From: Escherichia coli
Lineage (GTDB): Bacteria > Pseudomonadota > Gammaproteobacteria > Enterobacterales > Enterobacteriaceae
DNA: 854 bases
Reading direction: 5' to 3' (one strand)
Assembly (NCBI RefSeq): GCF_003334815.1
Contig: NZ_QOWO01000116.1
Part shown: positions 1-854 of the stretch, piece after piece
How positions within the stretch are numbered: the stretch's first letter is position 1
Layout of the letters: every line of letters starts with the position of its first letter
Translations under genes and position numbers: made by a program
The notes under the pieces: model-generated
Databases searched by the model: none
What the model saw: the letters and a program-made list of their open reading frames with translations, nothing else
Told to the model about the DNA's origin: nothing

Positions 1-62
1 CGCGAGGCATCGTCTTAACGAGGCACCGAGGCGTCGCATTCTTCAGATGGTTCAACCCTTAA

Positions 63-854
63 GTTAGCGCTTATGGGCTGGTCACCCACTGGCACTATGA
101 CGAAGCAGACCGCCTCACGCACCGCACCGTGAATGGCGAAACCGCAGAGCGGTGGCAGTATGACGAACGCGGCTGGCTGACAGACATCAGCCATATCAGC
201 GAAGGGCACCGGGTGACGGTGCACTATGGTTATGACAGTAAAGGCCGCCTCGCCAGTGAACACCTGACGGTGCATCATCCGCAGACGAATGAACTGCTCT
301 GGCAGCATGAGACCAGACATGCGTACAACGCACAGGGACTGGCGAACCGCTGTATACCGGACAGCCTGCCCGCCGTGGAATGGCTGACCTACGGCAGCGG
401 TTACCTGGCAGGCATGAAACTCGGCGACACACCGCTGGTGGAGTACACCCGCGACCGCCTGCACCGGGAAACGCTGCGCAGCTTCGGCCGTTATGAACTC
501 ACCACCGCTTATACCCCTGCCGGGCAGTTACAGAGCCAGCACCTGAACAGCCTGCTGTCTGACCGCGATTACACCTGGAACGACAACGGCGAACTCATCC
601 GCATCAGCAGCCCGCGCCAGACCCGGAGTTACAGCTACAGCACCACCGGCAGGCTGACCGGCGTTCACACCACCGCAGCGAATCTGGATATCCGCATCCC
701 GTATACCACAGACCCGGCAGGTAACCGCCTGCCCGACCCGGAGCTGCACCCGGACAGCGCCCTCAGCATGTGGCCGGATAACCGTATCGCCCGTGACGCG
801 CACTATCTTTACCGGTATGACCGTCACGGCAGGCTGACAGAGAAAACCGACCTC
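63..854 (+). CDS. Rhs-family YD-repeat protein, core (shell) region; 5'-truncated fragment, 3' end continues beyond window; possibly a pseudogene or orphan core remnant
   Basis: Seen in sequence: frame 3 is open from codon 63-65 to 852-854 (264 codons, no stop). Translation contains repeated YD-repeat motifs: [10 protein letters not shown] (87-116), [10 protein letters not shown] (153-182), [10 protein letters not shown] (222-251), YNAQGL (324-341), [11 protein letters not shown] (567-599), [10 protein letters not shown] (630-659), [10 protein letters not shown] (702-731), [15 protein letters not shown] (810-854). The motif YxYDxxGRLTEK is characteristic of enterobacterial Rhs core proteins (established knowledge). 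GC content is about 60-68% in the segments I counted by hand, typical of the GC-rich Rhs core. Start coordinate 63 is the first codon after the in-frame TAA at 60-62; recognisable Rhs sequence begins near 75. No in-frame ATG/GTG/TTG lies between 63 and the GTG at 129-131; the first ATG is 414-416, and none has a convincing Shine-Dalgarno. An annotation pipeline might instead call a start at 129 or label the region a pseudogene. A truncated mid-core start is reminiscent of rhsE in E. coli K-12, but I cannot verify the paralog. Confidence 0.88.

Follow-up and report, generated by a model that had tools for sequence, protein, structure and literature searches.

A probable IS186 insertion junction within an rhsC-type Rhs toxin gene of Escherichia coli

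Introduction

The stretch of Escherichia coli DNA analyzed here, 854 bases in length and referred to as the window, raises the question of how an Rhs reading frame comes to begin in the middle of a protein, shortly after an in-frame stop codon. An earlier note, made from the sequence alone, read the breakpoint as a deletion or recombination junction that had left a remnant of an Rhs core, and listed a mobile-element edge as one of several options for the 5' side. The analysis presented below favors, with a probability of about 0.9, a different reading, in which the window is the right-hand junction of an IS186 insertion amid an rhsC-type Rhs toxin gene. Features of the window, together with the occupied loci inspected in other genomes, are collected in Table 1.

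Table 1. Coordinates of features in the 854-base window, and rhs loci occupied by IS186 in other E. coli genomes
Feature	Position or locus	Strand	Remark
Sub-terminal non-coding part of IS186	1-52	+	Between transposase stop codon and inverted repeat
Terminal inverted repeat of IS186, 23 bp, CAACCCTTAAGTTAGCGCTTATG	53-75	+	Matches the opposite IS end, CATAAGCGCTAACTTAAGGGTTG, as its exact reverse complement
TAA in the Rhs reading frame	60-62	+	Within CCCTTAAGTT of the IS186 inverted repeat; incidental
Part of the YD-repeat shell of an rhsC-type Rhs core gene (3' portion, codons 692-951)	75-854	+	Runs off window end
Target-site duplication, right-hand copy, 10 bp, GGCTGGTCAC	76-85	+	Found at either flank of the IS in relatives
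Occupied rhsC, beside kdp-ybfA	L001, L005, L006, L012; L009, L010		L009 and L010 in opposite orientation
Occupied yibF locus	L003		
Occupied rpmE-metJ locus	L007		
Occupied rhsD, beside ybbP	L008		
Occupied pptA-yddH locus	L011, L018		VgrG gene upstream in L018
Occupied locus beside yeeJ	L017		

Results and Discussion

Breakpoint and reading frames

Three-frame translation of the window confirmed the stop codons described previously: frame 1 stops with TAA at 16-18, frame 2 with TAG at 65-67, and frame 3 with the TAA of Table 1. Frame 3 is the Rhs frame and is open from position 75 through the window end. Alignment against the intact rhsC of strain X14-3 (L002) placed the onset of Rhs homology at position 75, with none 5' of it, in agreement with the breakpoint proposed in the earlier note. 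When the whole window was compared by megablast with 5,426 complete E. coli genomes, two kinds of match emerged. Thousands of genomes matched over positions 75-854 only, while a handful matched over positions 1-854, at identities of 97.8% or less, and in the latter the PGAP annotation places an 'IS4-like element IS421 family transposase' between two rhsC pseudogene halves. The breakpoint is no chance effect, since positions 1-74 are 100% identical to a multicopy element (E 3e-29). The claim that positions 1-60 are not Rhs in any frame, and that a frameshift within an Rhs gene is therefore not involved, stands, as positions 1-74 are IS186 sequence; a frameshift or point-mutation reading was rejected on the same grounds.

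The window begins in a multicopy insertion sequence and stops in the multicopy rhs core, a pattern expected of a repeat-bounded short-read contig. Such a contig would account both for the missing upstream context and for the absence of the exact sequence from finished genomes.

The IS186 terminus

A search with positions 1-74 alone returned IS186 copies of 100% identity in 2,145 genomes, on chromosomes as well as plasmids, including the three IS186 copies of K-12 MG1655. Among the options listed for the 5' side, the mobile-element edge is thus the one borne out, and the flank that was to be identified is an IS186 end. The element is IS186 (copies IS186A/B/C in E. coli K-12; isoform IS421), a member of the IS4 family, which PGAP names IS4-like element IS421 family.

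The IS186 copy between nupC and pdeA of K-12 (L004) is 1,339 bp in length and is bounded by perfect 23-bp inverted repeats (CATAAGCGCTAACTTAAGGGTTG / CAACCCTTAAGTTAGCGCTTATG). Its transposase matches Pfam DDE_Tnp_1 (E 3.6e-26) and the IS4 family transposase model NF033592 (133 bits against a cut-off of 115); the transposase was assessed on this K-12 copy, the gene lying outside the window. In the same copy, the end of the transposase coding sequence lies 97 bases upstream of the base that corresponds to window position 1. Given that window positions 1-52 correspond to the stretch between transposase stop codon and inverted repeat, the transposase gene would be expected upstream of the window, on the + strand and in the same direction as rhsC.

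The two terminal repeats are exact reverse complements in all complete copies inspected, and the window contains one of them. Where the element is inserted in the opposite orientation, the match to the window begins only at position 53. The G at position 75 is ambiguous and may be read as the final base of the IS or the initial base of the flank; were the element to end at position 74, the duplication would be 12 bp in length (GGGCTGGTCACC, positions 75-86).

The Rhs fragment

The earlier note proposed to map the start of homology against full-length Rhs proteins, and this mapping places it at codon 692 of the 1,397-aa RhsC, the first base of which is window position 75. Over positions 75-854 the window matches the intact rhsC of strain X14-3 at 100% identity; among K-12 genes, identity is 99.5% to rhsC and 96.4% to rhsA and rhsB. 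The translated fragment matches positions 700-964 of the 1,261 in the NCBIfam RHS_core model NF041261 (E 1.1e-164); its score is 550 bits, the model's cut-off being 2000. It contains YD repeats according to matches to Pfam RHS_repeat and TIGR01643. Intact K-12 RhsC spans positions 1 to 1,261 of NF041261 and the fragment begins at position 700; its start is therefore mid-core and is no natural N-terminus, as had been supposed. The fragment falls short of a complete Rhs protein (N-terminal region, full shell, Rhs-associated core motif, and C-terminal toxin), and its 3' end lies outside the window. Judged by allele similarity, the sole guide in a window without flanking genes, the fragment probably belongs to the rhsC locus.

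The piece shares YD repeats, the RHS_core match, and near-identity to the K-12 gene with E. coli RhsC (b0700) and the RhsA/B/C/F core subfamily, but differs from RhsC (b0700) in being a fragment from codon 692 onward. A second point of comparison is provided by the orphan rhs C-terminal fragments such as ybfO, downstream of rhsC, which are likewise N-terminally incomplete Rhs coding sequences in an rhs locus. In these loci, however, orphan fragments lie downstream of the main rhs gene and measure approximately 1.0-1.5 kb, whereas the window fragment starts at codon 692 directly at the IS end. Nor is it, in the relatives, a stand-alone module separated from a 5' half; there the corresponding sequence is the second half of the main gene, with only the IS between.

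Target site and duplication

The 10-bp sequence GGCTGGTCAC occurs once in intact rhsC and twice, flanking the IS, in IS-bearing relatives. At the site of insertion intact rhsC reads GAGGATGAG GGG CTG GTC ACC CAC TGG. In strain 2013C-4991, the left junction runs from ...GAGGATGAGGGGCTGGTCAC into CATAAGCGC..., and the right junction from ...GCGCTTATG into GGCTGGTCACCCACTGG.... The target reconstructed from these sequences, GGGG-CTGGTC-ACCC, is located at codons 691-696 of the Rhs core and departs from the pattern GGGG(N6/N7)CCCC by one mismatch, ACCC for CCCC; in MG1655, its GGGG (rhsC codons 691-692) lies near coordinate 731,655. This pattern was derived for IS186 from 59 mapped insertions in K-12 mutation-accumulation lines, of which 7 contained one or two mismatches, single sites were struck up to 16 times, and both orientations were seen (Lee et al. 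2016, PMC5009759); the pattern is cited again in PMC6925257. When exact N6 and N7 patterns and one-mismatch N6 variants were examined, the site was the only one of its kind in K-12 rhsC.

The nupC-pdeA copy of K-12 has the same geometry as the rhsC site, with the target GGGG-ATAATT-CCCC and the duplication GGATAATTCC. The window therefore has in common with IS186 of K-12 the complete identity over positions 1-74, the 23-bp repeat, the 10-bp duplication geometry, and the preference for a G-run/C-run target, but contains the last 75 bases of the element only and has ACCC instead of CCCC on one side of the target. The motif varies among the K-12 rhs paralogs, reading GGGGCTGGTCACCC in rhsC (L015), GGGTCTGGTCACCC in rhsA (L013) and rhsB (L014), and GGGACTTGTCATCC in rhsD (L016). 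The difference between GGGT in rhsA and rhsB and GGGG in rhsC is a synonymous change of a glycine codon. The left-side GGGG was present in every occupied locus inspected.

Under the favored reading, the IS186 transposase would have recognized the G-run/C-run motif GGGG-CTGGTC-ACCC at codons 691-696, and a 10-bp staggered cut would have allowed the 1,339-bp element to insert with duplication of GGCTGGTCAC. Window positions 1-75 would then represent the transposase-distal end of the element, positions 76-85 the right duplicate, and the remainder the 3' half of the gene, displaced by the IS. With the rhs gene split in this way, its 5' half, comprising the N-terminal region and the first half of the YD shell, would run into stop codons of the IS. 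The 3' half would lose its promoter and start codon and keep the rest of the shell together with the toxin tip and immunity gene, both of which lie beyond the window. The split Rhs gene is presumably inactivated.

Occupied sites in other E. coli genomes

Junction queries, with distinct strains tallied, detected IS186 at the homologous site in 37 of the 5,426 complete E. coli genomes. The orientation seen in the window was found in 12 genomes, 11 of rhsA/B/C type and one with the insertion in rhsD. With an rhsD/E-type flank the window-like orientation was found in 11 genomes, one being the rhsD genome already counted and two also carrying an rhsC insertion. The opposite orientation occurred in 17 genomes (6 of A/B/C type and 11 of D/E type). 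Three sequences were found duplicated at the occupied sites, namely GGCTGGTCAC, GGCTTATCAC, and GGCTTGTCAC. The homologous codon position has been struck in at least six chromosomal rhs contexts and in both orientations. Gene conversion between Rhs cores is possible, so that not all occupied loci are necessarily independent transpositions; the two orientations, combined with three duplicated sequences, nevertheless point to no fewer than four or five separate events.

Twelve occupied loci were inspected (Table 1). All twelve contain an IS of 1,338-1,339 bp with perfect 23-bp inverted repeats and a matching 10-bp direct repeat, and in all twelve the rhs 5' half lies directly across the IS. These loci are simple insertions. 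The 5' half being intact across a 1,339-bp IS in related genomes, the gene is interrupted rather than truncated. By analogy with these relatives, the rhsC 5' half would also be expected across the IS in the genome from which the window derives; of the two IS ends and the two duplicates, the window itself shows one each.

In L006 (strain 600029, positions 5051-7700), the rhsC 3' half past IS186 is cut by IS1, and the usual ybfB-ybfC region is absent, with ybgA directly next; the IS1 cut and the missing region point to a second, IS1-associated deletion in the same locus. The bovine isolates OkiPb01676 (NZ_AP042480.1) and OkiPb01690 (NZ_AP042548.1) each carry IS186 in two rhs genes, rhsC and an rhsE-like gene near pptA. 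The IS186 copies at L001 4738-6075 and L018 3214-4551 are 1,338 bp rather than 1,339 bp in length and have a transposase annotated as frameshifted; decay is thus under way in some rhs-resident IS186 copies.

Compared with the window, the inspected IS-bearing genomes of rhsA/B/C type show 19-35 differences over 780 positions. The rhsC allele of the window was found together with the IS in none of the 5,426 complete E. coli genomes, X14-3 carrying the allele without the IS. Scans for the exact junction, one with a 66-mer and one with a 32-mer containing two N, found no match in species-representative genomes or JGI metagenomes. The plasmid collection contained no full-length match to the window, only IS-less rhs sequences of at most 96.5% identity and IS186 copies.

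Alternative explanations

One rival reading is a two-step history, in which insertion of IS186 was followed by homologous recombination with another IS186 copy or by an adjacent deletion that removed or relocated the rhsC 5' half and left the 3' half a true orphan. A single IS end in the window is compatible with such a history, IS copies often recombine with one another in E. coli (PMC5009759), and other IS-associated truncations exist at the Rhs loci of relatives, as where IS1 cuts the rhsC 3' part in L006. The window nonetheless contains no sign of a second event, and with all twelve inspected loci being simple insertions, in which the 10-bp duplications match and the 5' half has stayed where it was, a rearrangement of this kind appears quite unlikely.

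An assembly artefact would require a chimeric join of two repeat families, the multicopy IS186 and the multicopy rhs core. The window comprises only 854 bases with both ends in multicopy sequence, and its combination of allele and IS is found in no database record searched; both circumstances would suit a false join. The join falls, however, exactly at an IS terminus and a canonical target, and 37 finished genomes carry IS186 at this very site. So base-perfect a transposition junction makes a chimera very unlikely.

The deletion or recombination junction originally proposed, arising illegitimately or by homology but without a mobile element and leaving an Rhs core remnant beside unrelated DNA, would fit the reputation of Rhs loci as rearrangement hot spots with orphan C-terminal fragments (ybfO, and RHS fragments 'missing N-terminus' downstream of rhsC), yet is scarcely credible here, as the 5' side is an exact IS186 terminus (74/74 identity) whose repeat abuts a consensus-like target that is duplicated in relatives, the 5' rhs half is present in the relatives inspected, and native orphan fragments in these loci start much later in the core, downstream of the main gene, and not at codon 692.

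Relation to known IS186 hot spots

Insertion of IS186 into the rhsC-type gene is an ordinary event, the known element behaving as published and the arrangement already being annotated in RefSeq genomes of other strains. Reading the Rhs fragment as a new truncated toxin, or as the scar of an unexplained rearrangement, is therefore not warranted. Hot spots of IS186 have been described at fimA and menC in K-12 mutation-accumulation lines (PMC5009759), and PMC6925257, where it references saiSree et al. 2001, places another at the lon promoter of E. coli B. The rhs site resembles these in that a single motif-bearing site is struck repeatedly and in both orientations. It differs in lying inside a multicopy gene family, and a homologous site is therefore available, and struck, at several chromosomal loci. 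A full-text literature search returned no paper describing an rhs hot spot for IS186, only incidental co-mentions of IS186 and rhs.

That one homologous codon position is used again and again in the rhs family is a minor and apparently unreported curiosity, and the recurrence follows from the target specificity of IS186. It illustrates, on a modest scale, how a site-specific IS gains targets when its motif lies in a repeat gene family. A bolder proposal, which we regard as unlikely, is that the conserved target motif at codons 691-696 constitutes a family-wide mutational hot spot through which lineages repeatedly switch off single Rhs toxin genes. If true, synonymous variation such as GGGG versus GGGT in K-12 rhsA and rhsB would tune the vulnerability of individual paralogs, and later recombination between IS copies might seed new orphan toxin modules.

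Other features of the window

Expression signals were sought around the junction. No consensus-like promoter or terminator was found in window positions 1-300, and the full-text literature search returned nothing relevant on an outward promoter of IS186. No in-frame start codon with an obvious ribosome-binding site was found near the junction; by direct reading, the first in-frame GTG is at position 129 and the first in-frame ATG at position 414. Read-through from the co-oriented transposase gene into the 3' half is conceivable, if speculative. No structured RNA in the window matched Rfam at E <= 1.

Two antisense open reading frames are present on the - strand, one of 149 aa at 15-464, which extends across the junction into the IS186 end, and one of 99 aa at 528-827. 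Neither has an NCBIfam match, and both were set aside as by-products of GC-rich coding sequence. The 149-aa frame is a chimera made by the insertion.
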